A stretch of DNA of 27,592 nucleotides from a virus (Duplodnaviria > Heunggongvirae > Uroviricota > Caudoviricetes), in IMG/VR virus record IMGVR_UViG_2522572164_000008; one strand, written 5' to 3'. Position 1 is the first letter of the stretch, and each line of letters opens with the position of its first letter. Position numbers and translations under genes: made by a program. The notes under the pieces were generated by a model that worked only from the letters and a program-made list of their open reading frames with translations, was not told the DNA's origin and searched no databases. Shown here in pieces: positions 154-27,592 of the stretch.

Positions 154-219
154 ACCACCAGTAGGCGCATAACACATCCAGCGATCAAAGATGTGTTTAT
201 GCACCTGATAGTGAAATTA

Positions 220-3127: not shown

Positions 3128-3150
3128 TAACAGGAGAAGGAGAAAACCAA

Positions 3151-3943: not shown

Positions 3944-3952
3944 GGAGAATAA

Positions 3953-4222: not shown

Positions 4223-4319
4223 CAACAGATCGGGCAATACATATGGCAAATGCATTTATGGCGATATTCATCGTAACAATGGCGTCCAGTTTTTATAATC
4301 CACATAAAAAGAGGGAAAA

Positions 4320-4703: not shown

Positions 4704-4718
4704 TAAAATGATGGGTGT

Positions 4719-4964: not shown

Positions 4965-5263
4965 TGGAAGAAGATATTAGCAATGCAATGGAACAACTTT
5001 TAGATCTGACTATCTCACTACAAACAAGAATAAATCAAGCCTATTCAGATTTATGCGATTACACGCTCTCTCAATGCGTTATTAGCTTAATGAAGGTGAA
5101 TGTAAGCCTTGACGATTTTATCTCTCTGGTGAGCGTATCAGAGGACGATGCAAAACAGTGTAATCAAATCATCACAGACATCGCCACCACGTTAAAGGTT
5201 GCAAGTGAAGAGATTCAGCAATTAGTAGATGATTTAGCAAAAAGTGCTATTTTCTCTAAATGA
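4964..5263 (+). CDS. Hypothetical protein (99 aa)
   Basis: RBS AAGGAGAA upstream; ATG overlaps the previous stop (TAATGG), suggesting translational coupling. Confidence 0.5.
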   Translation: MEEDISNAMEQLLDLTISLQTRINQAYSDLCDYTLSQCVISLMKVNVSLDDFISLVSVSEDDAKQCNQIITDIATTLKVASEEIQQLVDDLAKSAIFSK

Positions 5264-6253: not shown

Positions 6254-6451
6254 ATGAAACAAGAAATGATTATCAGCAAAGACGGGGAAACGATGATTGT
6301 TAGTGATGAAAACCTCATTAAGGTTGCCGCACTGTTGGGAGTTACTCCCGAAAGTCTTCGTTCTACCACTGCTCAATTATTTAAATCGGCTGATGCGGTT
6401 AGTCTTGCTGATGCCCTTAAATCTAAAATTAAACAACTGAAAGGAAAATAA
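6254..6451 (+). CDS. Hypothetical small protein (about 65 aa)
   Basis: ATG at 6254 with AGGAA 8 nt upstream; the ORF-track start at 6212 lies inside a terminator-like hairpin and is unlikely. Confidence 0.45.
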   Translation: MKQEMIISKDGETMIVSDENLIKVAALLGVTPESLRSTTAQLFKSADAVSLADALKSKIKQLKGK

Positions 6452-6455
6452 TCTT

Positions 6456-6839
6456 ATGGCTAACCCATATGGAAAATTAAAAGCAGTGAATGCGGATAAC
6501 TCCCGTTCACGCTGTAAGGTAGTAGCTTACGCTGCTGATCCAGTGCTGCAAGATCGCCTCGTCAAACTGGCTTCACCTCTCACTGACGATCTTATTGTCG
6601 GGGCTTTGCTGAAAGCCGATGGCACCAAAGCAACAACCGCATCTGATATTGCTCACGTAGTAGTTGAACCGGCTTATGAAGGACAGGAAAGCGTAGTGGT
6701 TGCACATCCTACTTTCGTTATTCTGGCTGAAGATGGGATTGAATTTAACAGCATGGAAAAGGCAAGTGTTATTGCAAAACTGCAATCTCTCGGCTTTGTA
6801 ATTGCTGGTTATGAAGAACTTGCGATCCCTACGACTTAA
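6456..6839 (+). CDS. Hypothetical protein (127 aa)
   Basis: RBS AAAGGAAAA; starts 4 nt after the upstream gene and is followed 14 nt later by the next gene. Confidence 0.55.
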   Translation: MANPYGKLKAVNADNSRSRCKVVAYAADPVLQDRLVKLASPLTDDLIVGALLKADGTKATTASDIAHVVVEPAYEGQESVVVAHPTFVILAEDGIEFNSMEKASVIAKLQSLGFVIAGYEELAIPTT

Positions 6840-6853
6840 CAAGGAAAATAATA

Positions 6854-7885
6854 ATGAATGATTTATCAACATATTTTGGCGTTAATACTGCGGTAGTAAC
6901 TCCATTTGCTTATGAGAATGCACTTAATACCCTGATTACTAATCTCGATCTGTTCGATGTGCAATATCATACAGAAAACAGCATTCTTCTTACCGACCTG
7001 ATTGATCAGTTTGTGCAGGTAGCTGGGGAAACCTCGCCTTACGCTCAAAGCGACTGGAACGCCTCTAAACGTCAGGAATGGTCAAACAAACTTTTCCAGA
7101 TGAAACACGTCGGCAGTATTAACGCTGTTACTTCTCGTGACCTGGAACAATACAGCCGCCAATATCCAAACCGTTCTGATGCTATGCTGATAGCGGTTAA
7201 TGATTTCTCTGAGGCTCATTACCGTTCACACGCAAACCGTGTTGAAGTGGATCTGATTACCGCGCTGCTGGGCCTGAAAGTTGAATCTGAATATGCCGGA
7301 CAAGGTGATCTCGACTTCCTCGACGGTCAGGCTAAAACCACGGTACCCGCTATCGACTTTGCATCGACTACTGTTAACCCGTTCCTTGCTATTCGTAAAG
7401 CGGTGCGCTTACAGAGTGAAAAGCTGGGGTCTGGTCTTGCTGCAAAGCGAACTGGTGTAATTATCTTTGCTGCTGGCACTGCTGCTGATGGTTTGTCATC
7501 TAACCCGCTGATCAGTGACATGGTGAAATATGCAGGCGATGCGAGTGCTACGGCCCTGTTTACCCGTATGGTTGATTCTAACCCAGCCTATGACTCTTTC
7601 CAGATTGGTGGGATCACTGTTATTGATGTGTCAATGTTTCCTGAGATTGTTGCTCACATCGGAGAGAACGGTTTCGCAATTGTTCCGGTAATGGATAAAG
7701 CGGCACAGTGTTACCAGCTTCATAGCGGCGTTGGTGTGCGTCATGCTGAGTTAGGTCAAGATGCCGTGTTGCATCACCAATATCTAATCAAGGATGAATT
7801 CCAATTCCCATCTGTGGTTACTGAGACATCTTATCTGCCAGTAAACAACATTCCGCAAGCTATCATCTTCGGATCTGCTGCGTAA
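6854..7885 (+). CDS. Hypothetical protein (343 aa), no recognisable catalytic or nucleotide-binding motif
   Basis: RBS CAAGGAAAA; long ORF with protein-like composition; no Walker A seen. Confidence 0.65.
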   Translation: MNDLSTYFGVNTAVVTPFAYENALNTLITNLDLFDVQYHTENSILLTDLIDQFVQVAGETSPYAQSDWNASKRQEWSNKLFQMKHVGSINAVTSRDLEQYSRQYPNRSDAMLIAVNDFSEAHYRSHANRVEVDLITALLGLKVESEYAGQGDLDFLDGQAKTTVPAIDFASTTVNPFLAIRKAVRLQSEKLGSGLAAKRTGVIIFAAGTAADGLSSNPLISDMVKYAGDASATALFTRMVDSNPAYDSFQIGGITVIDVSMFPEIVAHIGENGFAIVPVMDKAAQCYQLHSGVGVRHAELGQDAVLHHQYLIKDEFQFPSVVTETSYLPVNNIPQAIIFGSAA

Positions 7886-8036
7886 TAAAGCGTTAATAGA
7901 CGATTCCCCATCGGGGCAATAAGGGTAAAGGGATTAACTAACCTGTAGGCGCAAATACAGTAACGAATCTCTTTGCCCTTTTTGTTTTTCTACTGTCTAC
8001 AAACCCAAATAAAAATATATATGTGAGAGAAAACCA

Positions 8037-8234
8037 ATGAATACAGAAAACCCACAATCCTTTATTCTTAAGGCTGTAAAAGAACTGGCAGCTATTAGCG
8101 AGGAATCAGTTATAAACACATCGGCGCTTTGCCGCCTTTTAGAAATTGATGCAAATAATGTGCGCCAGCGTGTCTTTCAGACTGGGTGCAGCACTTTCGA
8201 AGCAATTCAATACTATTGCTCTAAAAAACAATAA
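8037..8234 (+). CDS. Possible small HTH-like protein (65 aa)
   Basis: Weak RBS; segment TSALCRLLEIDANNVRQRV is HTH-like. Could be non-coding leader. Confidence 0.3.
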   Translation: MNTENPQSFILKAVKELAAISEESVINTSALCRLLEIDANNVRQRVFQTGCSTFEAIQYYCSKKQ

Positions 8235-8268
8235 TAAACAACAATCATAATACAGGGAAACAATTAGC

Positions 8269-10110
8269 ATGTTAGAACTTAACGTCAGCCGCTTATCAAA
8301 CGTTGTCACCTTCCAGGTTGATCGACCATCATTAGAGAAAGCAAAAGCAGAAGTAGAAAAACTTCGTAAACAAATGGCGGCGGTGAAAGATATAGAATTG
8401 CGTGTTAAGACACATAAACAATCAACTTCTAAAGCAAAAAAAGACGTAGACGATATTGCTAAAAAGCAAGCACAGGCAGATAAAGCCAATGCTAAAGCAC
8501 AATTAGCCGCTCAACGTGTAGTTGCAAGAGAACAAAAAGCCCTGGCAGCACGCAAAGAGAAGGCAGACTTAAAACTGTTAGACGTTGGATCAAGCATTAG
8601 TGCATTGCACCGCCTTTCTGTAGCGGAACAATATAAAGCTATTGCACAGGCTAGAGAAATTGCCCTCCAATATGAAAGAGGAGCTATTAGTCTGGCACGT
8701 ATGAATAGCCAAATGAAACGCCTACAACAGCAACAACGTAAGATTAATGGCAATCGTAACGCTCACGCTAAAGCCTATGCACCTGTTAAGGGTAGCGGGA
8801 GTATTGGCGGCGGTGCTGCGGCTGTTATGCTGGGTGGCTTAGGCGCTGGCGCTACGTATATGGCTATGAGCAAAGCCTCTGAATTTGTTACTAACAGCTT
8901 TGCGAATGCTGAAACGCTGGGTGAATTGTATAGCCGTGCGAAGCTGGGCGGTGTAGACGTTAACCAGATGAACAATATTGAGCAATGGGCCTACAAAAAC
9001 GGCGTTGATTCAATGATGGGGGATCAAGGTAAACGTAAGTATCTCGATCAGATGAAAGATGTGCGTGAGCGTGCAACCAAAAGCTATGATGAGGCTGAAT
9101 ATGTAGTCGATAAAAAAACAGGCAAAGGTGAATGGAAGGGCGGCGATAGCGGCATCAATACTTTAATGAATGAAGGATTCTTAACTAAAAAGGATCTAAA
9201 AGACTTTGCTGATAATCCGGCTGGTCTGGTTAGTAAAGCAGTTCAGGGAATGGTGAAGAAAGGCTATTCAGATGCACAAATCGGTAGTCGTCTGGAAGAT
9301 CTGGCTGATGATTTGATGCTCACCTCTAAATACTGGACACGCTCCGCTAAAGAAGTGGAACAATCAGCACGAGAACAACGAGAATCAGGGCGCTGGGTAA
9401 CACAGGCACAACAGGAAAGCGTTATTAAATTCCGTGAACTGAATAATGCACTTAGTGGGCTTTCTGACTCACAAGGGATCGCCTTTGTTGATGGCTTTAT
9501 GAAATCTCTTGATCCGAAAGTGATTGAAGAGTTTAAAAAGAGCATGGTTGCAATGCTGCCAATGTTTACCAAATTAGGCGAGGCTATCGGCGGATTGGTT
9601 AACGCCGTAATGAAAACAATCAACTGGCTGATGAAAAACGACGAGAAGACGGAAGCTATTCAGAAGAATTTAGGGGATGCACCGCCACTATCTAACGAAG
9701 GAATGAAGCAGAATCTTTCTAATCTCACTCCTGATCAATATAAAGGCGCTGGCACCGGAACAACTAAGCCAGATAACAGCAATTCCCTGGTTAACACTAT
9801 TAAAAGCTGGTTTATGCCAGAAGAAACGGTAGGTGGGGCGCAGGCTGTAAATCAATACAGTCTCGAAGGACAAAACATTGCAAATCTGAAACAGAGTGCA
9901 GCACAACAAGCTTTCAAGGCTCCTTCTTACACCTTTGCACCTGTTATTAACTTCAATCCAGAATTACAAGTAAATGCAGAAGTGCCGCTAACTATCGAAT
10001 CAGACACCGGACGATTGAGCGAATTTATCGACTTCAAATCAAAGGCATCCTCCGCTGAGTTTAGCAAGCTATTAACGCTGGGTGTTATGTCAGGCGGGTC
10101 AACCTATTAA
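8269..10110 (+). CDS. Large protein (613 aa) with Lys/Ala/Gln-rich N-terminal predicted coiled coil, a Gly/Ala-rich hydrophobic segment and a roughly 400-aa C-terminal domain
   Basis: RBS CAGGGAAACA; residues about 20-160 are K/A/Q/E-rich heptad-like; about 170-200 reads GSGSIGGGAAAVMLGGLGAGATYMAM. Confidence 0.7.
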   Translation: MLELNVSRLSNVVTFQVDRPSLEKAKAEVEKLRKQMAAVKDIELRVKTHKQSTSKAKKDVDDIAKKQAQADKANAKAQLAAQRVVAREQKALAARKEKADLKLLDVGSSISALHRLSVAEQYKAIAQAREIALQYERGAISLARMNSQMKRLQQQQRKINGNRNAHAKAYAPVKGSGSIGGGAAAVMLGGLGAGATYMAMSKASEFVTNSFANAETLGELYSRAKLGGVDVNQMNNIEQWAYKNGVDSMMGDQGKRKYLDQMKDVRERATKSYDEAEYVVDKKTGKGEWKGGDSGINTLMNEGFLTKKDLKDFADNPAGLVSKAVQGMVKKGYSDAQIGSRLEDLADDLMLTSKYWTRSAKEVEQSAREQRESGRWVTQAQQESVIKFRELNNALSGLSDSQGIAFVDGFMKSLDPKVIEEFKKSMVAMLPMFTKLGEAIGGLVNAVMKTINWLMKNDEKTEAIQKNLGDAPPLSNEGMKQNLSNLTPDQYKGAGTGTTKPDNSNSLVNTIKSWFMPEETVGGAQAVNQYSLEGQNIANLKQSAAQQAFKAPSYTFAPVINFNPELQVNAEVPLTIESDTGRLSEFIDFKSKASSAEFSKLLTLGVMSGGSTY

Positions 10111-10157
10111 TCATCACTGTGGGGCTGTTTAGCCCCCTTAAATAAGGATTACAAATT

Positions 10158-10835
10158 ATGGCAATGGGTCCGTTAACCATTGGTCGCCCGACTGAGGCGA
10201 AAATCAACAGCACAAGCAACGATAGCAACGGTAGAACAACCAAAGGGGGTAACGGCTTTGCGATCATTACCTCTAATCTCGGCAGTGGTGCAAATGCTGC
10301 TTACAATGACTACCAGGCATTATCATTTGATAGCGTGGAATCGACGAAAGTTAGCAGAAATGCGGACGTTACAAGCTATGCCGTCGAATCAGGATCAGAA
10401 GTTAGTGATCATGTTCAAATACGGAATAACAAGTTCACATTACAAGGGCGTATCTCTGAAACCGTATTGAAGCTCAATCCTGATATGATTAAGAATGCTG
10501 GAATTAACGGCAATCGACGTATGCTTATGCTTGAATACCTAAATCAGTTGATGGACAGTCGCCAACCTTTCCTACTTGTCACTGAGTTAAAAAATTATGA
10601 CAACGTTGTGTTAGTTGGCATGTCTTACGAAGAAGAAGCAAGCGAAAGCCTATTGTTTACTCTTGATTTTGAGCAAATCCGTCTTGTCTCTAAAGCAACT
10701 ACAAGCGCAATTGCGGTAAAAACAGCACCAAATAAATCTGTAGGAGGCCAGGTTAAAATGCAGGTAAATACAACAGAACAGAAAAATCAAAAAAGCCCAG
10801 GGCAAGACGTTGTAACGCCAGTATTTAAACAATAG
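10158..10835 (+). CDS. Hypothetical protein (225 aa)
   Basis: RBS TAAGGATTACAAATT-ATG; last gene of the same-strand array. Confidence 0.6.
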   Translation: MAMGPLTIGRPTEAKINSTSNDSNGRTTKGGNGFAIITSNLGSGANAAYNDYQALSFDSVESTKVSRNADVTSYAVESGSEVSDHVQIRNNKFTLQGRISETVLKLNPDMIKNAGINGNRRMLMLEYLNQLMDSRQPFLLVTELKNYDNVVLVGMSYEEEASESLLFTLDFEQIRLVSKATTSAIAVKTAPNKSVGGQVKMQVNTTEQKNQKSPGQDVVTPVFKQ

Positions 10836-10876
10836 CCTTAAACGCCTATGAAACGCTCTGTAACGAGATAATCATA

Positions 10877-10908
10877 AAAGAGGCATCAGTCTATATTGAA
10901 GCCTCTTT
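10877..10908. terminator. Putative bidirectional terminator between convergent genes
   Basis: AAAGAGGC ... GCCTCTTT 8-bp inverted repeat followed by T-rich sequence, between the 225-aa gene stop and the integrase stop. The loop is long (16 nt). Confidence 0.4.
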
Positions 10909-10915
10909 ATTACGT

Positions 10916-11820
10916 CTATAGCGTTGTTTTACGCCTTAAATTTGATTTTTTATTGATTGATAAGCCTTTCTCTATTTCAGGGTAGCGTAAAAGCTCAATA
11001 TATTTTTTAAGCTCTATTGGAGAAGCTGCATTTTTGCTATATGTGCGGAATGTTTCTGTATTGCCGCGTGTATGGCCCAGGAGAAGGGCGATCCTGTCTT
11101 CTGGAATTTGATTTCGATCAAGAAGCTGTGCTACTCCGTGTCTCAGAGAATGAAACACTTTCCTTTCTGTTCCCTTTTCCCCTAAAGCCTTTCGTTTAGC
11201 TCTTGTAAATCGTTGTGTATGCCACGTAGAGCGTTTACCGTCAGCACGTTCTGTAATGCTGGCGTGATAGAACAAAAAGCCATTGTGAGGCTTTTCACGC
11301 AGCGACAACACCAACGGAGTGATAAGGTTATGCACAGGCACAACACGTGCCGCAGCTTTCGTCTTTCCCTGTGTGATTTCAAAACACAGCACACCTTCGA
11401 TCTCTTTCACATCGTCTATTGTGAGACTTGCTATCTCATTGATCCGCATACCTGTATATAAACCGATAAGACACAAAGCCGTCATTTCTTTGTTTTCTGC
11501 TGAATTACCGGAAAATACTTGCAACACCTGCAATAGCTCTTTGTTAGAAAATGCCTCGTAGCTCTCTCTACTTTGTGCCACATCAAGCCTATGCCCTCGC
11601 CAGGGGGAGAGCGCCCTTTCTGGCGCATCGTGGTAACGTGATGAAGCTAATTCCCATAGCTGGGCCATTGGACTGATATAATTTGCAATTGATTGTTGTG
11701 AAAGAGTTTTTTGCATGTGTTCAATCCAGCCTGTAACAGTGGTGCGGCTTACATCTTGCAATGCAATATCAGGCTTTTTACGGTAGGAGAGAAACATCTC
11801 TACCGCTTTTCTTGCCTTAG
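10916..11820 (-). pseudogene. Tyrosine integrase, C-terminal catalytic fragment (separated from its N-terminus by IS5)
   Basis: Contains H-x-x-R (FHSLRHG), LLGH and a C-terminal Tyr (RTYSK) typical of tyrosine recombinases. The first 23 codons of the ORF-track protein are read from inside IS5. Confidence 0.8.
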
Positions 11821-13015
<1,195 letters not shown>

Positions 13016-13479
13016 TTAGCTAAAGTGGCTGGCTTCTTCTTCGTGCTGTTAATTGTCAGGTAGATTTCAAGAATTTTAAGCAATGACGGACACGAAGACG
13101 CTGTATCTTGCACTCTGGTAGCTGTTTTGGCGTATTTAGCCTTACTGCGTAACAGTTCCAGCGTGTTTTCTATTGTGCTGTTTACAGGGGCAACACTCTC
13201 CCGTAAGCAATGGTATTCATCTGCAATCTGATCACGCTTTCTACGTGCAACACGAAGATTACTTGTGTGTAGACTTCTGACAAACGTCCTTTTTCCTTCA
13301 AAAAAGGGCTGCATATACACAGGCAGCGTGATCCTTAAATAGTAGTTACCGTAAGAATCACAGATTAAGTATTGGTTAGGCTTGTATCTCATAAAATCTC
13401 CGGCTAAAGTGTCGGAGCGTTTGTAATGTGAAAATTGATTGTGACGCATAGAAAATGATGATTTTTCTATAAGATTCAA
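13016..13479 (-). pseudogene. Tyrosine integrase, N-terminal fragment (continues at 11820-10916 across IS5)
   Basis: N-terminal integrase-like segment (YYLRITLP...GKRTFVRSL). The ORF-track protein then reads through into IS5 (about 36 aa of IS-derived sequence). Frame arithmetic shows the two fragments are in frame once IS5 and one TTAG copy are removed. Confidence 0.8.
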
Positions 13480-13644
13480 TCAATTAGTAATGGTCGTAGG
13501 TGATGGCATTAACACGAGATTAATCGAGTGTTTTACTCCTATTATCGGCACCATTCTAATGTCTCCCCAAGTCTACTCAAGTATTTAAAAACCTCTTATA
13601 ATCCGCATGTTAGCGCCCCTTTTAGTCTTTTGACGTCTACTTAA

Positions 13645-13719: not shown

Positions 13720-14934
13720 GTGAAACTCAATGCCCGTCAAATAGACACTGCCAAGCCAAAAGAGAAGGCTTACAAGCTGGCTGATGGTGGTGGTCTGTAT
13801 CTCTTGGTAAAACCTAGTGGAGGAAAATATTGGCGCTTCAAGTATCGTGTAGCTGGTAAAGAGAAGCTGTTAGCACTAGGTGTGTATCCTGAAGTTACTT
13901 TGGCTGATGCTCGTGCAAAACGTGAAGAAGCTAAAAGGGGTATCGCTGGGGGTATCGATCCGATGGAAGCGAAACGAGAGGAAAAGATTGCCCGGGAAAC
14001 GCAGTTAAACAACACCTTCAAAGATATTGCCCTTGAGTGGCACAGCAGCAAATTAAAAAAATGGTCTGCTGGTTATGCTTCAGACATCCTCGAAGCCTTC
14101 AACAAAGATGTGTTCCCTTACATTGGCAAAAAACCAATCGCCGAAATCAAACCACTTGAACTGCTGAATGTGCTGCGGCGCATCGAGGGGCGCGGTGCTA
14201 CCGAAAAAGCCAAAAAAGTGAGGCAGCGATGCGGGGAAGTTTTCCGCTATGCAATTGTCACTGGACGTGCTGAGTATAACCCTGCACCGGATCTCACCAG
14301 CGCGATGCAAGGTCATGAATCTAATCATTATCCTTTCCTCACAGCCAAAGAATTACCTGATTTTTTCAAGGCATTGTCCAGTTACTCAGGAAGTGCATTG
14401 GTTGTTATGGCGGCTCGTCTACTGATTATCACCGGTTTGCGGACTGGCGAACTGCGCGGTGCATTATGGGATGAAATCGATCTCAACAAGGCTATCTGGG
14501 AGATACCTGCTTCACGGATGAAAATGCGTCGCCCTCATGTGGTGCCTTTGTCTAAGCAGGCTCTTTCGCTTATTGGGCAGATTAAAGAATTAACTGGCAA
14601 TTATCCGCTTATGTTTCCCGGCCGTAATGATCCAAGGAAAACAATGAGCGAGGCTAGCATAAACCAAGTATTTAAACGCATCGGCTATAACGGAAAGGTT
14701 ACTGGTCATGGATTCCGGCACACCATGAGCACCATTTTGCATGAGCAGGGCTATAACACCGCGTGGATAGAGACGCAGCTCGCACACGTCGATAAAAACT
14801 CAATTCGTGGCACATACAACCATGCGCAATATCTGGATGGACGGCGGGAAATGCTTCAGTGGTACGCCGATTATATGGATTCGCTCGAGCATGGCGGAAA
14901 TGTGGTGCATGGTGAGTTCGGAAAATGCGGGTGA
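13720..14934 (+). CDS. Tyrosine integrase, P4/CP4-57-like family (404 aa)
   Basis: GTG start with GGAGG 9 nt upstream; N-terminus ARQIDTAKPKEKAYKLADGGGLYLLVKPSGGKYWRFKYR typical of P4-type integrases; catalytic R...HGFRHT...Y region near the C-terminus. Confidence 0.9.
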   Translation: MKLNARQIDTAKPKEKAYKLADGGGLYLLVKPSGGKYWRFKYRVAGKEKLLALGVYPEVTLADARAKREEAKRGIAGGIDPMEAKREEKIARETQLNNTFKDIALEWHSSKLKKWSAGYASDILEAFNKDVFPYIGKKPIAEIKPLELLNVLRRIEGRGATEKAKKVRQRCGEVFRYAIVTGRAEYNPAPDLTSAMQGHESNHYPFLTAKELPDFFKALSSYSGSALVVMAARLLIITGLRTGELRGALWDEIDLNKAIWEIPASRMKMRRPHVVPLSKQALSLIGQIKELTGNYPLMFPGRNDPRKTMSEASINQVFKRIGYNGKVTGHGFRHTMSTILHEQGYNTAWIETQLAHVDKNSIRGTYNHAQYLDGRREMLQWYADYMDSLEHGGNVVHGEFGKCG

Positions 14935-15062
14935 CTGGTTGAGTATACAGTAGTAGACTTTGAGCGACGAAAGAAAAGGCTGTGTCTAGGGGCGCTCCCG
15001 AAAATCCGTACATCTCGACGGACTGGTACAGCCACTACAGTAGAGGACGCTGAGGTGTGCGT

Positions 15063-16054: not shown

Positions 16055-16252
16055 ATGTCAAATACGCTTATTCGTTTAACAGAAGTTCAGCGTAGAACTG
16101 GATATAGCAAGGCATGGATTTATCGCCTTATGGGGCAAGGTAAATTTCCTGCATCAGTTAAAATTGGCTCGCGAGCTATTGCTTTCGTTGAGAGTGAAAT
16201 TGACGAGTGGATTAATCAGCGTATTGCTGAATCACGCGGAACAGCTACCTGA
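16055..16252 (+). CDS. alpA: AlpA-family phage transcriptional regulator/excisionase-like HTH protein (65 aa)
   Basis: Sequence LIRLTEVQRRTGYSKAWIYRLMGQGKFPASVKIGSRAIAFVESEIDEWI matches the AlpA family pattern; RBS GAGGTAAATAT-ATG. Confidence 0.85.
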   Translation: MSNTLIRLTEVQRRTGYSKAWIYRLMGQGKFPASVKIGSRAIAFVESEIDEWINQRIAESRGTAT

Positions 16253-16330: not shown

Positions 16331-17131
16331 ATGAAACTGCGAAAAACGCCCGTACAGGGGCAGGGCTTCGTTCGGCCTGAAAACCAGAATCTGCAAAATT
16401 TCGGCGAAATTATCCCGGTTATTTCCGGCGTTATTGGCGGGCGTGAAACCAATATTGTTAGCGGCAGAGCGTTGCATAAGGCGTTAGGTGTAGGTCGCGT
16501 TTTCCGTTCGTGGATCAAGGGGCGCATTGAAGAATACGGCTTCACGGAAGGCGTGGATTATGAGGTTGTTGAATATTTGAGCCGACCCGATCCGGTGAGC
16601 GCAAAATCTCGCCAGCAAACAGCTCTTGAGTACATCATTACCGTGAACATGGCGAAAGAACTGGCGATGGTCGAACGCACCGAACAGGGGCGCGCCGTTC
16701 GTCAGTACTTCATCAAATGCGAGGAAGAGCTACACAAGGTTGCGCCTGTACGTTCCGCAGCGTTACGCCGGGAACTGAAAGCCCGTATCACAGTTGCCAG
16801 CTACTTTAAGCCAATGTGTGCCGCGCTGGAGGACTACCGGGCTGAACTGGGTAAAAACACTCTACAGCACCACTACACCACGGAAGCCAATATGCTGGCG
16901 CGTATCGTGCTGGGTGGCATGACTGCAAAACAGTGGGCGCAGGTGAACGGCATCACAGGCGAACCACGCGACCACATGAGCACGTTGCAGCTTGAGCACC
17001 TTTCTTACCTTGAGCAGAGCAATATCACGCTGATTGAGTTAGGCCAGGACTACCACCAGCGGAAGGCTGAATTAATTCGTCTTTCGCAGCGTTGGTTAGC
17101 CCGTCGCATGGAGGAAAACAGCCATGTGTAA
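16331..17131 (+). CDS. Phage antirepressor-like protein (266 aa)
   Basis: RBS AGGAG; N-terminal region resembles prophage antirepressor proteins as recalled. Family assignment tentative. Confidence 0.6.
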   Translation: MKLRKTPVQGQGFVRPENQNLQNFGEIIPVISGVIGGRETNIVSGRALHKALGVGRVFRSWIKGRIEEYGFTEGVDYEVVEYLSRPDPVSAKSRQQTALEYIITVNMAKELAMVERTEQGRAVRQYFIKCEEELHKVAPVRSAALRRELKARITVASYFKPMCAALEDYRAELGKNTLQHHYTTEANMLARIVLGGMTAKQWAQVNGITGEPRDHMSTLQLEHLSYLEQSNITLIELGQDYHQRKAELIRLSQRWLARRMEENSHV

Positions 17132-17590
17132 CGCTCTGACCGTTACAAAAAGAGAAAGCGCCCCGTTGCCGGAGCGCCTTTGTGAACGAATAGCCTACTG
17201 CGCCATATTGCTTACTGTCTACGAGGCAGATTATAGCGTTGTGGTCGCACAGAGTGAAGGCGCTGATCACCGTTACTACAGCACGCCAGAAATGCAGAAT
17301 ATTTTGCTGCAAAATGCCGTTGGCCACGCTGTCCGGAAAGCAAAAAATTTTGCTGGTGGCGCGACTGATGCGATTTTGTCAGGTCGCCAGGTGCTGATCA
17401 ATCTGATGTCTGATTTCGTTCTGGATAAAACAAAGGCGACCGCAGAGAGCCGCCAGTGGAAAAGCTACATACTTGAACGCATCACCAACAATGCCACATT
17501 TGCGGCTGGTGGGCAATGTGTCAGCTTTGCACCAATGACTCTAGGTTTAACTGAGGGTCATTATGGTGAATATGCTGGCTTGCTGGTGGG
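17124..17590 (+). other. Coding-like 5' part of a 1.57-kb stop-free frame; status unresolved, possibly a decayed or fused gene
   Basis: ATG at 17124 overlaps the upstream stop and has GGAGGA 9 nt upstream, but the frame has no stop until 18692 and runs antisense through a plausible minus-strand gene and a promoter region. The end coordinate is arbitrary. Confidence 0.3.
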
Positions 17591-17848
17591 CTATTCCTGC
17601 TCTTTAACATCGCCATGCCGCGATGTTTTCCAGGTATGCGACCCCATTTTTGTGCGCCTGTACTCTTTAAGGAATTTCTCAAGGATAAACGCACAGGGCG
17701 CGAATCTGTCTGACTCATGCTCGTACGCTATCTTTCTGCGCTGTCTTTTCCGTGCCGGTGATGGTGTATTGGTTGATTCTTTGTTGGTCATGGCGCTGCC
17801 CTGTAAAACGATGCACCGTAGTTCCTCACACCACGGCGCTGGTGATGG

Positions 17849-18154
17849 TTACTCCTGTTCTTTGGCCTTGCGCCGCTGGAGTTCTTCACGCGCGACGGTG
17901 ACGAGTTGCCCGATCTCCTCGGCTGCTTTGACACCGATTTTTTCCACCTGCGCCAGTGCATCGAGCGAAGAAACCAGGGGATTTTCTCCGCTTCCTTCTG
18001 CCTGGCGGCGGGCGATTTCACCGCGAACGGCTGTAATCACGAAAGCGGCTATTGTTTCCCCTTCCGTTTTCGAATTTTCCATTTCCTCGATTACATCATG
18101 GGGGAAGCGGATATTTTTCATTTGCGATCTGCTGTTGATGTTTCCTGTTGCCAT
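17849..18154 (-). CDS. Putative ribbon-helix-helix-type regulator with C-terminal coiled coil (101 aa)
   Basis: MKNIRFPHDVIEEMEN strand-helix pattern; divergent from the downstream plus-strand operon across a palindrome-rich region. No clear SD. Confidence 0.6.
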   Translation of the reverse strand: MATGNINSRSQMKNIRFPHDVIEEMENSKTEGETIAAFVITAVRGEIARRQAEGSGENPLVSSLDALAQVEKIGVKAAEEIGQLVTVAREELQRRKAKEQE

Positions 18155-18176
18155 CAGAATGTCCGGTTATTTTGAG

Positions 18177-18279
18177 GTGTGTACACATTACACCAAAAGG
18201 TGTGTTGATAAAACACTTGACACTGTAGCACACTTAAATCTAATCTGTATATACACTAATGATTGTGGTGTATATACAG
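18177..18279. promoter_or_regulatory. Divergent promoter/operator region with three palindromes
   Basis: Perfect 12-bp inverted repeat CTGTATATACAC (18245-18256) / GTGTATATACAG (18268-18279) with 11-bp spacer; TGTGTACACA (18177-18186); ACACCAAAAGGTGT (18190-18203); TTGACA at 18217-18222 with a TAATCT -10 candidate 18 bp downstream. Confidence 0.55.
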
Positions 18280-18346
18280 CAACGCCCCGCAGTGGTGGCA
18301 CACATGCAGGGCGTCTAACCAAACCGTTAAACGAGGTAACGATTAT

Positions 18347-18692
18347 GGCTGGAACACAGCATACCCAAACTCACCCTAAATTTATATACACCTTCCTGGC
18401 GGTGCACCGTGATTGCATAGCTGACGGTAAAAACACTGTACACGTAGCCGCTGATACGCTGGTTGATGCCTGCGAGATGCTCAATGACATGGGCTATATC
18501 TCGGCAACATGGAAAGGGCGCGAAGAAAACACGCTGTTTATTCAGAAATGCGAGAACAATTTTATCTGGCGTTTTATCGCCCTGAGCACAGCACAACCGC
18601 GCGTAATTCACATCGAGGCCACCAGCGAACAGGAAGCGCGTCAGCAATCTCCTGATGGCTGCGTGATGGTATTCGCTGCCCGTATTCGCTAG
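18347..18692 (+). CDS. Hypothetical protein (115 aa)
   Basis: ATG at 18347 with GAGGTAACGATT upstream; this is the 3' part of the long stop-free frame and is probably the real gene. Confidence 0.5.
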
Positions 18693-19265: not shown

Positions 19266-19556
19266 ATGAAAAAGAAAAATTCTGGCTTTACTGCCAGCGG
19301 CCTCTCTCGGTCTGCAATTCGCTCTGGCGATATTTACCGCGACACCAGACGTGGGGGACGAGTGGTTATTCGTCACGTTACGCCAGGCAATATCACCTAC
19401 CGCCGTGAGGCTTACGAATATGACTGCGTAATGCCGCGCCGTCAGTTTGAGCGTGATTTTATTCTGGTGGAAAACAAACAATTGGCGGTGGCAAGACGTG
19501 CAGCCTCGAATATTAAAAAAATCCGGGCAATGTTGGTTGCGGGAGGTAAGAAGTGA
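19266..19556 (+). CDS. Hypothetical small basic protein (96 aa), possibly of a conserved island-associated family
   Basis: Motif GDIYRDTRRGGRVVIRHV...YEYDCVMPRRQFERDF resembles small proteins recalled from P4-integrase islands; stop overlaps the start of the next gene. Confidence 0.5.
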   Translation: MKKKNSGFTASGLSRSAIRSGDIYRDTRRGGRVVIRHVTPGNITYRREAYEYDCVMPRRQFERDFILVENKQLAVARRAASNIKKIRAMLVAGGKK

Positions 19557-21685
19557 AAAACGCACCGAATTTAAAATATCAGCCAAAGGATAAATTCACC
19601 GAGGTAATCATTTTTGCCGGGACGGATGCTTACGCCCATGCTCAACACTGGATTGAAAGCGAAGGACGAAAACACGGCGATAACGTGCCACCTGTTTACC
19701 TGGGGCCAACGCAACTGGCAGATCTGGCTAATATCCGCATTATCGACGATGAGCGCCGCTTTGCGCGTGTTTATATCGCGGGGGAGATAGAGCCAATCCA
19801 GATCAATGCTATCGCTGAAAAGCTGGCGCTGGCTGGCGTACAGGATGCGAAATTATACAAAGGCATCACCGACCGGGAGCCGGAGAACTGGCGCGACTAC
19901 CTGCAACGGATCCGCGAACAGGCAGAGCGCGGGGAAACCATTCCTGAAGGAATCGGAATAGCTGGTGGATCACCCGGTAAAACAGACCCCATGAAACCGC
20001 ATATTACCGAAAAAGACGGGGCGCTCTGGTATATCGAGCCAATCCCCAACACCAGGGCAGAGGAGATGAATTATAAAGAAACCTGGCTGAGTGACCGGAT
20101 GCGCACGGCAGGTATTGGTAACGACGGAAGGGAAGCGTATCTGATCATTGAAATGATCCCGGAAGGGACACAAAAAATTATTTACGAAGCGATGCCGCGC
20201 AATGAAATCGGTATGCCCGCAGGATGGGCGCGATTACGTGGGCGGGGAGTTGCAATCACTACCAGTGCCCATTTACTGAACAAACTGGCGGAATACCTGC
20301 AACGTCATGGAGATCGCACGGTGTGGGAGGTCACATCAACAGCAGGTTGGCATTGTGGAGCCTATGTTATGCCTGATGGCGAGGTGATTGGTGTGCCTGA
20401 CCGTCCCGTAGCATTCTGCGGCGGATCTGCCGCCATCAAAGGCTATATTGTCAGGGGCACGGTGCATGAATGGCGAAATAATGTTGCTTCTCTGATGCGT
20501 GGCAATCACTCAATGATGCTTGGGGTGCTGGTCGGGCTGGCAGCCCCGCTAAATTCCCTTGTGGGTGGTAGTTGTTTTGGTATTCATCTTTTCGCGCAGT
20601 CGTCAGCGGGGAAAACCACGACTGTGGAGGCCGCCACCAGCCTTTATGGCGACCCTGAAATGCTTAAACTCTCGTGGGATGCCACCCGGCACGGGCTGAC
20701 AGTGGAAGCAGCTGCACGTAATGACGGTTTTATCCCTATTGATGAAATTGGTCAGGGAGGAAGGGTTAATGACATTGCGCAATCCGCCTACAGCCTGTTT
20801 AACGGTGTGGGCAGGATTCAGGGGCGCAAGGACGGCGGTAATCGTGCGGTAATGCGCTGGAAAATAGCGGCACTAAGCACCGGAGAAGAAGATTTTGAAA
20901 CCTTCCTGTTAAAAGGGGGAATTGCCCCAAAGGCAGGGCAACTGGTGCGACTGCTAAGCATTCCCTTTACCGATACAACGGTGTTTAACGGTTATGACGA
21001 TGGTGATCAACATGCCAGGGCCATAAAGCGACTTTCATCAAATTATTGTGGCGCTGCGGGACGTGAGTGGGTGCGCTGGTTATCCGCTCACAAGGAGCTG
21101 GCTATCAACACCACTTCAGATAAAGAAAATGCCTGGCTGGGAAATCTGCCTGAAAATGCCTCGTCACAGGTAAGGCGAGTGGCATCGCGATTCGCCATGC
21201 TGGATGCAGCCGGAGAGCTTGCCACCGCAATTACTGGCTGGACAGCTGAAGAATGCCGGGAAGCAACGCAACGGGCTTTTGATGACTGGCTACAGGATTT
21301 CGGGCTGGAAAACCGGGAAAAATATCAGGTCATCAGTCGCGCCCGTGACTTTATTCAGCGCCATGCCCTGAGTCGTTTTCAGCCTTATACCTACGGGAAA
21401 AGCAATGGGGATATGGATAACCACTATGCATCCCGTATAAGCAATCTTGCAGGCTATCTTGTCAGCGGTAAGCGTGAGGATGGAAAACCCGAATATCACA
21501 TTATCCCGTCAGTGTTTGATAGCGAAATTTTATGCGGTATATCCAGGAACTTTGGGTGTCAGGCGCTGGAAGAAGCCGGAATGCTGGTTTGTGCAGAACC
21601 TGGTCGCTGGACATCGAAAACAGTGAAGATTAACGGAACACAGCAGCGATTTATCGTGCTGATTGATCAGGCAGAAGACGAATAG
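19553..21685 (+). CDS. Replication protein, primase/helicase-like P-loop NTPase (710 aa)
   Basis: GTG start with GGAGGT upstream; Walker A GxxxxGKT (FAQSSAGKTTTVE); large N-terminal domain; followed directly by an iteron array. Confidence 0.75.
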   Translation: MKNAPNLKYQPKDKFTEVIIFAGTDAYAHAQHWIESEGRKHGDNVPPVYLGPTQLADLANIRIIDDERRFARVYIAGEIEPIQINAIAEKLALAGVQDAKLYKGITDREPENWRDYLQRIREQAERGETIPEGIGIAGGSPGKTDPMKPHITEKDGALWYIEPIPNTRAEEMNYKETWLSDRMRTAGIGNDGREAYLIIEMIPEGTQKIIYEAMPRNEIGMPAGWARLRGRGVAITTSAHLLNKLAEYLQRHGDRTVWEVTSTAGWHCGAYVMPDGEVIGVPDRPVAFCGGSAAIKGYIVRGTVHEWRNNVASLMRGNHSMMLGVLVGLAAPLNSLVGGSCFGIHLFAQSSAGKTTTVEAATSLYGDPEMLKLSWDATRHGLTVEAAARNDGFIPIDEIGQGGRVNDIAQSAYSLFNGVGRIQGRKDGGNRAVMRWKIAALSTGEEDFETFLLKGGIAPKAGQLVRLLSIPFTDTTVFNGYDDGDQHARAIKRLSSNYCGAAGREWVRWLSAHKELAINTTSDKENAWLGNLPENASSQVRRVASRFAMLDAAGELATAITGWTAEECREATQRAFDDWLQDFGLENREKYQVISRARDFIQRHALSRFQPYTYGKSNGDMDNHYASRISNLAGYLVSGKREDGKPEYHIIPSVFDSEILCGISRNFGCQALEEAGMLVCAEPGRWTSKTVKINGTQQRFIVLIDQAEDE

Positions 21686-21717
21686 CACAACCTACGCTCG
21701 CAGAGGGTCAAAAATCG

Positions 21718-21990
21718 CGGGATATGCGGGATATCGGGATATGGAAATATATTGCATAAATATCAGTTATTTATGTGTTGTTGTCGTATCCCGCTGTATC
21801 CCGCCGTATCCCGGTATTTAGGTTTACGAGTGGTTGTAAAACAAACAAAATAACCGTATCCCGGAATGTATCCCGCAATATCTTATTGATGCATAAGCAA
21901 AAAAAAACTTACCGGGATATGGCGGGATATGAAAAATCACATAACGCTATGAAATAAATGGGTTTTTTTTGTTTATATCCCGATATCCCG
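21718..21990. repeat. Iteron array: 12 copies of the octamer CGGGATAT (or its complement) in alternating blocks, with A/T runs; candidate replication origin
   Basis: Forward copies at 21718, 21727, 21735, 21913, 21923; reverse copies at 21787, 21797, 21807, 21857, 21868, 21975, 21983; A- and T-runs at 21899-21907, 21963-21970 and 22005-22013. Confidence 0.7.
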
Positions 21991-22143
21991 GTAAAAAATG
22001 TTTTTTTACGCCTTATAGAGTACAGAAAAAAAGGTTGTTCAAATTTTGTATTACGATTGACTACTGTCAGCCATCCCACCCGGAAAAGGCATAAAAGCTG
22101 ACAGGTAACTGACAATGAGACTGTTTTATTTTTACGTGCCGAT

Positions 22144-22701
22144 ATGACGGCAACAATGATGGGGCAGAGCATGACAAAACTGACCATTAACAGAAAACCG
22201 AAAGGTATTTACGGCACGCCGCAGAAAACGACGCAGGCGGCACAGAAGCAGGATAAAACCACATCGGCACATAAAGTGATGCCCGGTAACCAGAAAGCGC
22301 AGCAGAAGCCCACAGGGGCGACACCGTGGCGGCATATGACCAAACGCCAGCGCAAAAACCGCAGGCGCGTTAACCGTCTCACTGAGTTGTGGCCTGAATT
22401 ATTCAGCCGGGAAGCACCGAAGCCACTTAAGGTGGGGATATTCGACGACCTGATGCAGGATATCGCCGTCAGGGGGCTGGCATTCGGTCCAGGGGCATTA
22501 CGTGCGACGCTGGCATCTTATGCGCAGTGTCCGCGCTATTACCGCGCCTTAATGGCTGGTGGGGTGCGCTATGACCTGAAAGGCCAGCCGTGCGGCGAGG
22601 TGACACCACAGAAACAGAACGAGGCAGAAATGCGGCTGATGGCGCTGAATGAGAAGCGCAAACGCCAGCGCCGGGCAGCCAGGGAGAAAACAGGCGCATG
22701 A
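22144..22701 (+). CDS. FinO/ProQ-domain RNA-binding protein-like (185 aa)
   Basis: Core PLKVGIFDDL...LRATLASYAQCPRYYRALMAGGVRYDLKGQPCGEV follows the ProQ/FinO domain pattern as recalled; basic N-terminal tail. Start codon uncertain. Confidence 0.65.
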   Translation: MTATMMGQSMTKLTINRKPKGIYGTPQKTTQAAQKQDKTTSAHKVMPGNQKAQQKPTGATPWRHMTKRQRKNRRRVNRLTELWPELFSREAPKPLKVGIFDDLMQDIAVRGLAFGPGALRATLASYAQCPRYYRALMAGGVRYDLKGQPCGEVTPQKQNEAEMRLMALNEKRKRQRRAAREKTGA

Positions 22702-22985
22702 TTCACGACAGCAAAGCGGAAGCACTGGAAGCGCGTGGACTGTACCGGAGAGCGGCGGCGCGGTGGGCTGAGGTCATCATGCTGGCGAATGATGACAAGG
22801 CACGGGAACAGGCGGCAAAACGTCGCGCGGAATGTATCCACAAGGCAGCACGCCCACCAGCAAGGCAGGATAATTTCGGGGAGATGCGCGAAACCATCAG
22901 CCGGGCACATGCCGGGATGGGATTACATCAGCCCAATGGTGAGGCATTCAGGAAATACCAAAAAAAGAACAATTGTAGTCAGTAA
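22698..22985 (+). CDS. PerC-like transcriptional activator-like small protein (95 aa)
   Basis: N-terminus AEALEARGLYRRAAARWAEV resembles PerC/Pch-family activators as recalled; ATG overlaps the upstream stop (ATGA). Confidence 0.5.
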   Translation: MIHDSKAEALEARGLYRRAAARWAEVIMLANDDKAREQAAKRRAECIHKAARPPARQDNFGEMRETISRAHAGMGLHQPNGEAFRKYQKKNNCSQ

Positions 22986-23119
22986 CAGAGGATGGGATTC
23001 TCTTGGTTTTTTGTTGATGCTTTCTGAGGAAATCTACTACGTTGCTGAGCAGATGAATATTCAATTGCATCTGGGTTCCTGATAAGATTAATCTGAATAT
23101 TTTCATTTGGAATAGGGAT

Positions 23120-23923
23120 ATGAATAAAACTTTAATTGCAACATTAGTCGGTATAGTAATGTTAACCGGATGTGGGCCAGAAGAGTTAACTCCAGAACAG
23201 AAACAGGAAGTAGCTGCTCTTAAAGCTGAACTGTCGCAAACGGAAGGTGAAATATCAGCAGCTAAGGAAGTTGACCAGCAGTTTTCTGGTGGGTTGATAA
23301 AAAATCTGACAACAGCAAGACTGGAAATATTAGGAACTAATAAAGCGCTTTTGGAACAGCGTATTAATGCTATTGAATCAGGTGCCAAAATTGATGTTGT
23401 TGTATCTGGAGTAAAACCTGATCCTGAGCTTGCGGCTTCAATTAAAACTGAAATTGACAGCTTAGATGCAAAAATCAACGAAGCCAAAGCTGATGCTCGT
23501 CAGTATAGTGGTGGTCTGATAAAGGTACTAAAATTATCTACTGTTGCCACTGAAGAGCAGACCATGGCAATGTTGCAGCAAAAGTACCTCACAGCCAAGT
23601 ATGGCCTCGCTGAAGTTAAGCTGGCATCAGTACAAGCTAATGACGCAAAAAACAGTACTGAAACGGAAGTAACAGCCAAAAATTCCCAAGAGCAACTTCC
23701 TTTACTCCCGCCAGCGGATGGTCCGTTTGGCTTAGAAGCCGGTCTTACACAGAAAAACATCGAAGATATGATCGGTGCTAAGCTCAAGCCACTACCAGAC
23801 AGTGTGAATCTGTATACTTCTGATAAATTACCGAAGCAAAACGCAGATTTTGAAATGTATGGTTTGCTGATCTCCCCGAAAGCTGGTTTATGTCAAATAC
23901 GGGCTTTAGGAAAAAAATATTGA
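23120..23923 (+). CDS. Lipoprotein (267 aa) with internal sequence repeats
   Basis: Signal peptide plus lipobox (MLTGC); internal repeat QQFSGGLIKNL / RQYSGGLIKVL; AT-rich relative to neighbours; RBS AGGGAT. Confidence 0.7.
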   Translation: MNKTLIATLVGIVMLTGCGPEELTPEQKQEVAALKAELSQTEGEISAAKEVDQQFSGGLIKNLTTARLEILGTNKALLEQRINAIESGAKIDVVVSGVKPDPELAASIKTEIDSLDAKINEAKADARQYSGGLIKVLKLSTVATEEQTMAMLQQKYLTAKYGLAEVKLASVQANDAKNSTETEVTAKNSQEQLPLLPPADGPFGLEAGLTQKNIEDMIGAKLKPLPDSVNLYTSDKLPKQNADFEMYGLLISPKAGLCQIRALGKKY

Positions 23924-23939
23924 TACTGATAGCTATGGA

Positions 23940-24263
23940 TTGGCTCTTAAATCCAAGTTTGAAGAATTGAGTAATTCTTTAAGTTCTCTGTATGGAAAGG
24001 CTGATACTACAGACTTTTTGCTGGCTGGTTCAATTTGGAAAGATCCTCAGGACTGGATGAGGGGGCTAAACAAAAAAGAACGCTTCTTATCTGCCACATG
24101 GAAGGGAACAAAAGAAATACCATTAAAAAACAATATTGATACTATATCTATTGAGGCCAGAGCGAACAATTCCACTCAGGGATATGTCTATCTGCAGTAC
24201 TCATTTACAAATGACGAAATTTGTCAGGCAGAAATTGAAGGGGCGAAAAAAAGTTCCCTTTAA
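23940..24263 (+). CDS. Hypothetical protein (about 107 aa, start uncertain)
   Basis: Open frame right after the lipoprotein gene; the first codon in the track is a non-ATG start; followed by a clear terminator. Confidence 0.35.
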   Translation: MALKSKFEELSNSLSSLYGKADTTDFLLAGSIWKDPQDWMRGLNKKERFLSATWKGTKEIPLKNNIDTISIEARANNSTQGYVYLQYSFTNDEICQAEIEGAKKSSL

Positions 24264-26596: not shown

Positions 26597-27592
26597 ATGG
26601 ATACGAGAGTGGCGACGATAATCAAAAATATAGCAATCAAAGGTCTTTTTAAACGGAAGGACATTGATTGGAGTTTAAAAGATGTGAATGTTTTAGTGGG
26701 TAAAAATGGCTCAGGTAAGAGCACGATAATTCAAAGTGTTTTTGCCCTCTTAAAACAAGAATTAAATGAAAGTTTAAGTAATGCTGCGTTGGCTCAAATA
26801 ACATTGGCCAATGGAGGCACAATTACTCACAAAGTTAATTTTCGCGAAATTGACTCTGTCCAGCTTCTAAACCTACTTAATAACCTTAAGAAAAACAGTA
26901 TTAAAGGTAAATCAAAGGGTAAGGAAATAAAGGAGTTAAATGAACTTATTGAGTTGCTTGAATCGAAAAAAGAAGACACTGAAATTAAAGAGTTCGGGAT
27001 GGGAACTGTTAGCGTAAGTGATAATATTAAAAACACTAAGCGAATAAATGTTGAGTTAATATCAACTATCAATATGAGTGCCAATTCCATCTATGAATTC
27101 AAAAAAAGTGATGGTGAGCGCACCACAATTCTTGATATGGAAATTGCTGGTGAATTAGAAAGGTTAAAGAATACTTTCAAAGTAAGTGAGTCTAAAGGTA
27201 TTCTCATAAAGGATAAGTTGGAATCAGCTATAAATAATTTATTTTCTGAATGTAACAAAGTTGTTTCTTTTAGTAATGGTAACATTTCTATTAAGATGAG
27301 TGATTCTGGTGAAGATATTAGGTATAATCTTCTTTCATCAGGTGAACGTCAGTTGTTATATATTCTGATTAAAACAGCTAATACTTCATTGGATGAATCT
27401 GTCTTGTTGATGGATGAGCCAGAAATATCCTTGCACCTTACGTGGCAAGAAAGATTAATAAGCACCATCAAATCAATTAACGATAATTGTCAGTTAATTA
27501 TTGTTACTCATAGTCCTGCAATATTAATGAAAGGCTGGATGGATTCTTTCGTAGATATAAAAAATATTTCAAAGGAATCTTCTCATGACTGA
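26597..27592 (+). CDS. ABC-type/SMC-like ATPase (331 aa), defence-associated type
   Basis: Walker A GKNGSGKST, ABC signature LSSGERQ, Walker B LLMDEPE, H-loop IVTHSP; very AT-rich versus island backbone; TATAAT at 26573-26578 upstream. Confidence 0.85.
   Translation: MDTRVATIIKNIAIKGLFKRKDIDWSLKDVNVLVGKNGSGKSTIIQSVFALLKQELNESLSNAALAQITLANGGTITHKVNFREIDSVQLLNLLNNLKKNSIKGKSKGKEIKELNELIELLESKKEDTEIKEFGMGTVSVSDNIKNTKRINVELISTINMSANSIYEFKKSDGERTTILDMEIAGELERLKNTFKVSESKGILIKDKLESAINNLFSECNKVVSFSNGNISIKMSDSGEDIRYNLLSSGERQLLYILIKTANTSLDESVLLMDEPEISLHLTWQERLISTIKSINDNCQLIIVTHSPAILMKGWMDSFVDIKNISKESSHD
27585..27592 (+). CDS. Start of a translationally coupled downstream gene (truncated by the window end)
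   Basis: ATG at 27585 overlaps the ATPase stop (ATGACTGA) with AAGGAA 8 nt upstream; only 2.7 codons visible. Confidence 0.3.

Follow-up and report, generated by a model that had tools for sequence, protein, structure and literature searches.

The window analysed here, a 27,592-nt stretch of viral DNA assigned to the Caudoviricetes (IMG/VR record IMGVR_UViG_2522572164_000008), carries a gene for a FinO/ProQ-domain protein followed immediately, on the same strand, by a gene for a small regulator of the PerC/Pch family. Judged by its gene content, the island that holds both genes is a phage satellite of the phage-inducible chromosomal island (PICI) type, integrated at thrW in Escherichia coli strain 55989. 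We regard the two genes, which are co-oriented and closely linked, as a module belonging to the replication-proximal part of the island's backbone, with a likely role in the satellite's own regulation and possible side effects on the host, and we would put the probability of this reading at about 0.5. The pair is assigned to the backbone and not to the cargo because its position beside the origin is conserved across replicase types and genera. The finding of a FinO/PerC pair is correct but not new. Positions 22000-23100 are 100% identical to E. coli 55989, to O104:H4 outbreak strains and to several further isolates; the RefSeq names in 55989 ("ProQ/FINO family protein" and "PerC family transcriptional regulator") are already right, the pairing was listed for island ROD34 in the 2010 genome paper on enteroaggregative E. 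coli (EAEC) 042 (PMC2808357), and a 2026 survey includes PerC and ProQ among the accessory genes of Enterobacter PICIs (PMC13612085). A DNA-level relative is present in 321 of 5426 complete E. coli genomes (~6%), always on the chromosome. The features of the pair are as follows.

22171-22701, + strand: gene for the FinO/ProQ-domain protein, 176 aa, identical to RefSeq WP_000164228.1
22698-22985, + strand: gene for the PerC/Pch-family small regulator, 95 aa, identical to RefSeq WP_000581045.1
22682-22701, + strand: FinO/PerC gene junction, read from the sequence, with a Shine-Dalgarno (SD)-like GGGAG at 22682-22686 and ATGA at 22698-22701

The open reading frame (ORF) list of the window gives two + strand frames, 22144-22701 and 22698-22985. 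The first-pass annotation had begun the first gene at 22144, which is probably 27 nt too early; the start most likely lies at 22171 (MTKLTINRKPKG...), since the RefSeq start, the N-termini of homologues (the majority of which open with M[TV][KT]LTINRKPKG) and the edge of DNA homology (similarity to related islands sets in at ~22155-22171) all agree. The ATGA overlap which it described is real, the TGA stop of the FinO-like gene occupying 22699-22701 and the ATG start of the PerC-like gene 22698-22700. With the GGGAG situated 11 nt upstream of this ATG, the junction combines an overlap with a downstream ribosome-binding site inside the upstream ORF, the arrangement of a translationally coupled pair. 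An SD-like GGAG or GAGG lies within the 3′-end of the FinO gene at every FinO-PerC junction examined. The 4-nt overlap is found at five junctions, including those of the related loci L003, L004, L018, and L026, while the overlap is 14 nt in Salmonella locus L030, and the two genes of E. coli island L035 are separated by a 2-nt gap. Downstream of a gene for single-stranded DNA-binding protein (SSB), PerC has its own SD and follows after a gap of 9-16 nt. Translation of PerC would start from the SD that lies within the final part of the FinO gene, possibly in coupling with translation of FinO; because PerC has its own SD after SSB as well, it may not need such coupling. A dN/dS of 0.2-0.3 for each gene places both under purifying selection. 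Synonymous diversity is 0.06-0.25 at 22171-22365, the first ~65 FinO codons, against mostly 0.2-0.3 over the FinO domain; the scan, made for an embedded RNA element, drew on nine mosaic homologues, too few to interpret, and the low values could reflect recent recombination or an overlapping constraint at the nucleotide level.

The genomic context of PerC was surveyed with a profile search restricted to one genome per species, which returned 16 loci; for that reason the figures for how often SSB and FinO occupy the slot are approximate. Neighbors of these loci and of Sakai Sp7 were assigned by local hidden Markov model and BLAST searches. The order that recurs, in many Enterobacteriaceae, is DUF4222/RgdR, replicase, origin or gap, SSB and/or FinO, and PerC, and the same order accompanies three replicase types. 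By locus, SSB-PerC occurs 10 times and FinO-PerC three times, neither gene is present at L012, L014, or L017, and L013 is too short to judge. The SSB-PerC arrangement is found in Sakai Sp7 (where the SSB is confirmed by Pfam), Atlantibacter, Enterobacter, Kluyvera, Shimwellia, Buttiauxella, and others; E. ruysiae has FinO-PerC, E. albertii has SSB-FinO-PerC, and one Enterobacter locus has neither SSB nor FinO ahead of PerC. Look-ups of abundant clusters and of E. coli matches added further E. coli islands with SSB-FinO-PerC. FinO-PerC also occurs downstream of a RepA-family helicase and, in Salmonella, downstream of a P4-alpha-like primase. EcCIEDL933, the prototype capsid-forming PICI (10.1101/2022.09.08.507074), corresponds in Sakai to Sp7, whose pchE sits between the replication genes and the capsid operon. 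A lone "PchABC family" gene among insertion sequence (IS) elements is an exception to the recurring order.

Two further observations concern these loci. L018 (JAHEOE010000100.1), which has a divergent FinO-PerC pair (28% and 37% identity, respectively, to the window proteins), is a 5.7-kb contig filed as a "Candidatus Paceibacterota" metagenome-assembled genome; it carries enterobacterial-type FinO-PerC-SSB together with DUF4222 and is probably misbinned or a contaminant. Some E. coli loci (L026-L028, at 9045-9353) possess a second PerC-family gene ~4 kb 3′ of FinO-PerC and near a Phage_Nu1 gene, so PerC paralogues can accumulate at one site.

The remaining features of the island in the window are listed below.

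13720-14934, + strand: feature that adjoins tRNA-Thr (thrW) in strain 55989
16055-16252, + strand: small helix-turn-helix (HTH) regulator in the AlpA position (RefSeq on the 55989 copy; L019 and L022 have a Pfam Phage_AlpA gene at this position)
19266-19556, + strand: DUF4222 protein gene (Pfam PF13973, 2.6e-19)
19553-21685, + strand: DUF927 primase/replicase gene (RefSeq on the identical 55989 copy; Pfam DUF927 in related loci)
21714-21995, no strand: iteron field, ~12 copies of an 8-9-nt repeat (C/G)CGGGATAT, lying in either orientation and set apart by AT-rich spacers

The iteron field, which lies between the primase and the FinO-like gene, is probably the replication origin of the island, and its layout is the one to be expected for the origin of a PICI. 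The 55989 copy is ordered integrase, hypothetical protein, HTH regulator in the AlpA position, AntA/AntB, Icd-like protein, DUF4222, DUF927 primase, FinO-like, PerC-like, several hypotheticals, and an AAA ATPase with a DUF4435 protein. It has the gene content and layout by which a Gram-negative PICI is recognized: an integrase, an AlpA-type regulator and a primase in one orientation, a putative iteron origin, a length of ~15 kb, and a tRNA site. No phage structural genes are annotated between the integrase and AriB in this copy. The related elements EcCIEDL933 (10.1101/2022.09.08.507074) and EcCIMP1 (PMC11773190) are mobilized. The first-pass annotation had described the pair as island cargo. 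It stands instead directly after the primase and the putative iteron origin, in an order conserved among related satellites, and the variable, AT-rich cargo begins only 3′ of PerC; the GC content is ~50% in the backbone, 55-60% in the FinO/PerC pair, and 31-46% in the DNA after PerC.

The DUF4222 protein shares its family with RgdR (Sakai ECs1581), a published regulator of motility and of the enterocyte effacement locus (LEE) (PMC3378721), and almost every related island keeps its gene immediately upstream of the replicase. The AAA ATPase and DUF4435 genes are identified by PADLOC as AriA (5e-43) and AriB (3.6e-22) of PARIS; they stand at the right end of the island, 26608-27592, where they are cut by the end of the window, and a complete copy is found in L001 at 16609-18565.

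Assignment of the first protein to the FinO/ProQ family, as proposed by the first-pass annotation, is borne out by profile search and by the predicted fold. The Pfam ProQ/FinO profile PF04352 is matched over positions 5-108 of 109 with 82.3 bits (E=3.1e-23) against a gathering cut-off of 27 bits. A phmmer search of Protein Data Bank (PDB) sequences recovered the N-terminal domain of ProQ (5.8e-12) and FinO (3.4e-10), NMB1681 and RocC also being related. The AlphaFold2 model, built from 49 homologues, has a disordered, basic, Gln/Lys-rich segment at residues 1-52 (predicted local distance difference test, pLDDT, <50), and a FinO fold with a long C-terminal helix at residues 55-175 (pLDDT ~90). 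Compared with the PDB using Foldseek, the model gave a top 26 consisting entirely of NMB1681, FinO, RocC, or a Legionella ProQ homologue (E 1e-6 to 4e-5), with target TM-scores of up to 0.84; the FinO-domain matches include terminator-bound RocC. In the alignment, cpRYYralmaggvRYDLkG of the window protein is matched by swRYLygvkpgatRVDLdG in ProQ and by the corresponding segments in FinO and RocC, and Y117, Y123, R125, R133, and D135 are invariant or nearly so within the subfamily. This RY...G..RxDL stretch, taken as a whole and not residue by residue, is the one which we presume, from the ProQ and RocC literature, to hold the Tyr/Arg pair (Y70/R80 in ProQ) that contacts the RNA 3′-end.

The curated NCBIfam models draw a boundary. 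The scores for FinO (NF010317, 62.5 bits; cut-off 136) and ProQ (NF003434, 57.2 bits; cut-off 127) both fall below their cut-offs, and the protein is therefore placed in a separate subfamily and not considered an orthologue of FinO or ProQ; across the domain it is ~32% identical to plasmid FinO. Plasmid records contain essentially no close relatives, the one near match being on a 4.8-Mb record filed as a plasmid, and none are found in ~50,000 phage genomes. As far as sequence comparison goes, this is a separate chromosomal, satellite-borne subfamily of the FinO/ProQ family.

The PerC assignment fares equally well, PF06069 being matched over its full length (positions 1-89 of 90) with 109.1 bits (E=1.3e-31; gathering cut-off 22.6 bits), and the best PHROGs match is phrog_994 (4e-35). 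The protein shares with the PerC/Pch family a conserved N-terminal motif, KAExLE-x-GLYRRAA-RW. It is 51% identical to PchE of O157:H7 Sakai, 48% to EcCIMP1_025, 47-58% to plasmid PerC proteins, and 63% to a protein that RefSeq names "PchABC family." The confidently modeled N-terminal 50 residues form a three-helix unit resembling tetratricopeptide repeats and ANR, with no recognizable DNA-binding motif; a comparison of the sequence with PDB chains yielded a designed coiled coil as its sole match, which was dismissed as meaningless. Against the NCBIfam ANR model (NF033650) the protein scores 14.9 bits, below the cut-off of 32. Sub-threshold matches to this model occur in 62 of 77 PerC-family members (best E 6e-6), and PerC residues 6-52 align with nearly the whole of it. 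This suggests that the PerC family is remotely related to ANR without being a member, a link also proposed by the authors of the EcCIMP1 paper (PMC11773190). The mode of action of PerC is most likely protein-protein, by analogy, because Pch activates LEE1 through relief of H-NS silencing (PMC4764244) and ANR/Aar, which has no DNA-binding domain, binds AggR and H-NS (PMC5570504).

What such proteins regulate differs from one to the next. PchE leaves LEE largely unaffected and, on overexpression, represses csgD/curli (PMC6265319), in Citrobacter rodentium LEE1 is silenced by EcCIMP1_025 (PMC11773190), and among the RgdR and PerC variants carried by E. coli PICIs only some activate LEE (PMC6092414). 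Since satellite-borne relatives may activate, ignore, or silence LEE, membership in the PerC family predicts neither the direction nor the target of regulation, and the link to chromosomal virulence loci drawn by the first-pass annotation is correspondingly weak.

One question to be answered is how tight the pairing is. Homologues of the two proteins share contigs down to ~55% identity, and numerous E. coli DNA matches end at the FinO/PerC junction. On the sequences compared, the combination is frequent and modular, not obligate. In the commonest FinO lineage, a 138-aa ORF 3′ of FinO was considered as a divergent PerC and rejected (hhalign probability 0.3%); a frameshifted PerC remnant lies beyond it.

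Several observations weigh against a backbone module devoted to the regulation of the satellite. The pairing is optional: some PerC genes are accompanied only by SSB, some by neither partner, and some lie at other sites of an island or prophage. The commonest FinO-like cluster, represented in >4000 index blocks of the assembly collection, has a frameshifted PerC remnant downstream, and another island likewise combines an intact FinO with a frameshifted PerC. Between the window and L026 the FinO proteins are 90% identical and the PerC proteins only 64%; such shuffling of alleles is evidence against two proteins that co-evolve and physically interact. Nor do all PerC genes hold the backbone position: in EcCIMP1, integrated at the same thrW site, PerC is distant from the primase and there is no FinO gene, and a lone PerC homologue lies in a P22-like prophage beside Abi_2 and SieA. 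PerC relatives have opposite effects on LEE1 (PMC11773190, PMC6265319). At the nucleic acid level, a promoter and terminator scan of 21500-23300 revealed nothing convincing for the gene pair (the minus strand gave a single promoter-like site and a single weak hairpin, both within chance expectation), and the region 3′ of PerC, folded as a terminator, gave a z-score of 0.31, which is not significant. Finally, no RNA partner for the FinO-like protein was identified in the island, where the sole Rfam match above gathering score is the int-alpA motif, 7 kb away.

The foremost alternative, and the view of the first-pass annotation, is that the pair is accessory cargo which mainly rewires chromosomal virulence, adhesion, or motility genes of the host. 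LEE is, to our knowledge, absent from the host type, EAEC of the 55989/O104:H4 type being LEE-negative. There is nevertheless a body of work behind this view: on expression in enterohemorrhagic E. coli (EHEC), PerC/Pch proteins control LEE and PchE controls csgD/curli and flagella (PMC4764244, PMC6265319, PMC7369912); LEE1 is silenced by EcCIMP1_025 (PMC11773190); publications on PICIs class PerC among virulence or accessory genes (PMC6092414, PMC13612085); the N-terminus of PerC is weakly ANR-like; and EAEC possesses the AggR/Aar circuit (PMC5570504). Most of the reported host effects, however, stem from overexpression from plasmids, and none is reported for the FinO-like protein. The origin-adjacent position, conserved across replicase types and genera, is moreover not that of the variable, AT-rich cargo, which comes after PerC. 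We consider a primarily host-directed role unlikely, while taking it seriously.

In a second, rather improbable explanation the FinO-like protein is a replication accessory factor which, with an antisense or primer RNA at the origin or replicase, sets copy number in the manner of FinO/FinP or FopA/Inc, paralleling SSB and leaving PerC as an independent neighbor. Its gene does directly follow the putative iteron origin, it alternates or co-occurs with the SSB gene in the same slot, it is intact where PerC has decayed, and plasmid members of the FinO family steer replication or transfer through antisense RNAs (PMC8136791, PMC7491321, PMC9977716). Yet around the origin and replicase gene no antisense RNA, promoter, or terminator was detected, and SSB and FinO co-occur too frequently to be simple alternatives to each other. 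The FinO cassette, furthermore, shows DNA homology from its start codon onward, while the origin and replicase vary among three types, so that any origin-borne partner RNA would need to be a different one from island to island. That the two proteins form a physical complex, a single bipartite regulator whose overlapping genes ensure production in fixed proportion, is very improbable, for although the 4-nt overlap is kept in L018 at 28% (FinO) and 37% (PerC) identity and both homologues stay on the same contigs down to ~55%, the pairing is optional in both directions, the alleles diverge discordantly (90% vs 64%), mosaic breakpoints fall at the junction, and PerC has its own SD in every context, SSB included.

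On the favored reading, a module of the satellite backbone, the FinO/PerC genes would be transcribed with the rightward replication operon, an assumption made as no convincing promoter of their own was found. FinO-family proteins bind terminator hairpins (PMC9674577, PMC9977716), and the FinO-like protein may bind and protect terminator-type hairpins of one or a few RNAs of the island or of a helper phage. PerC would contact nucleoid or activator proteins, acting either through relief of H-NS silencing, as Pch does, or through ANR-like anti-activation. It would thereby alter the expression of AT-rich, horizontally acquired DNA, the most obvious target being the AT-rich genes immediately downstream, and a response of host loci, LEE1 or csgD for instance, would be limited to hosts that have them. 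A bolder proposal, which we offer as speculative and doubtful, is that satellite FinO-domain proteins are a distinct class of RNA chaperone in the core circuitry of PICIs, residing beside the origin with or in place of SSB and linked in translation to a PerC/ANR-like partner by which transcription dependent on H-NS or AraC is remodeled; together they would act as a joint switch at the RNA and nucleoid levels that times replication and the AT-rich downstream genes (the capsid genes of capsid-forming PICIs, PARIS here) during helper infection.

Candidate partner RNAs were examined in the window and in related islands. The int-alpA motif (RF02996) is at 14979-15046 on the + strand, just 3′ of the integrase gene, and scores 44.2 bits against a gathering score of 35.8. 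It was set aside as a partner of FinO: the motif is missing, at gathering score, in Sp7 and EcCIMP1, both of which lack FinO, and with one positive case no association can be claimed. The IsrK and C4 antisense RNAs were rejected as well, being present in related islands both with and without FinO; in the window they were not detected even at E up to 1. In seven loci (L004, L005, L006, L007, L009, L030, and L033), genes for IsrK and the C4 antisense RNA stand side by side upstream of the Icd/ash region and resemble the immI-like module of P1.

The window differs from 55989 by one single-nucleotide polymorphism at 18690 and by a 1-nt indel at ~23917, which splits a gene for a 380-aa lipoprotein-like protein (signal peptide MNKTLIATLVGIVMLTGC) into 23120-23923 and 23940-24263. 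Positions 1-13555 represent a second mobile element upstream of the island, with annotated matches to a phage baseplate protein, a recombinase, an integrase and an IS5-like transposase, the last of these in one strain. No intact tRNA was found in the window by ARAGORN, though the island abuts tRNA-Thr in 55989.

Each protein is an unremarkable representative of a known family; the interest that is left lies in the FinO subfamily specific to satellites and in the conserved slot that follows the putative origin. FinO-domain proteins have so far been studied on plasmids (FinO, FopA) and chromosomes (ProQ, RocC), and here a subfamily appears to be confined to satellites. PerC/Pch proteins are usually seen as regulators of virulence; that they keep a place beside the origin whether or not the host has LEE suggests that the original job lies inside the satellite. 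If this is true, effects on LEE, curli, and flagella are side effects, and annotations of virulence regulators on such islands need rereading. Given the O104:H4 outbreak-lineage background, any effect on genes controlled by AggR or H-NS would be of medical interest.

Among known systems, the nearest to the window PerC are PchE (ECs1588, EHEC O157:H7 Sp7/OI-51) and EcCIMP1_025 (E. coli MP1), which are PF06069 proteins of 90-95 aa carried, like it, by satellites with a P4-type integrase, AlpA, and primase, EcCIMP1 being also at thrW. In Sp7, pchE follows the primase and origin as PerC does here, but the gene upstream is SSB and not FinO; in EcCIMP1 PerC is far from the primase and a FinO gene is lacking. 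In published work PchE represses csgD whereas EcCIMP1_025 silences LEE1, and neither activates LEE1 (PMC6265319, PMC11773190). PerC of the EAF plasmid of enteropathogenic E. coli and PchA/B/C of EHEC share the family and N-terminal motif of the window protein and are LEE1 activators that relieve H-NS silencing; their context is the plasmid per operon or a lambdoid prophage, whereas the window PerC belongs to the backbone of a satellite. The ANR family (Aar of EAEC), small anti-activators binding both AraC-type regulators and H-NS, is similarly small and all-helical with no DNA-binding motif, but the window PerC possesses an additional C-terminal 40 residues and scores below the curated cut-off. 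The FinO-like protein shares its domain, predicted fold, and RY...G..RxDL stretch with the characterized RNA chaperones FinO (F-like plasmids), FopA (IncI pCol1B9), ProQ, RocC, and NMB1681. Its disordered basic N-terminus and long C-terminal helix resemble the layout of FinO, and its gene too lies on a mobile element beside replication functions; it differs from plasmid FinO in its ~32% identity and in being chromosomal and satellite-borne.

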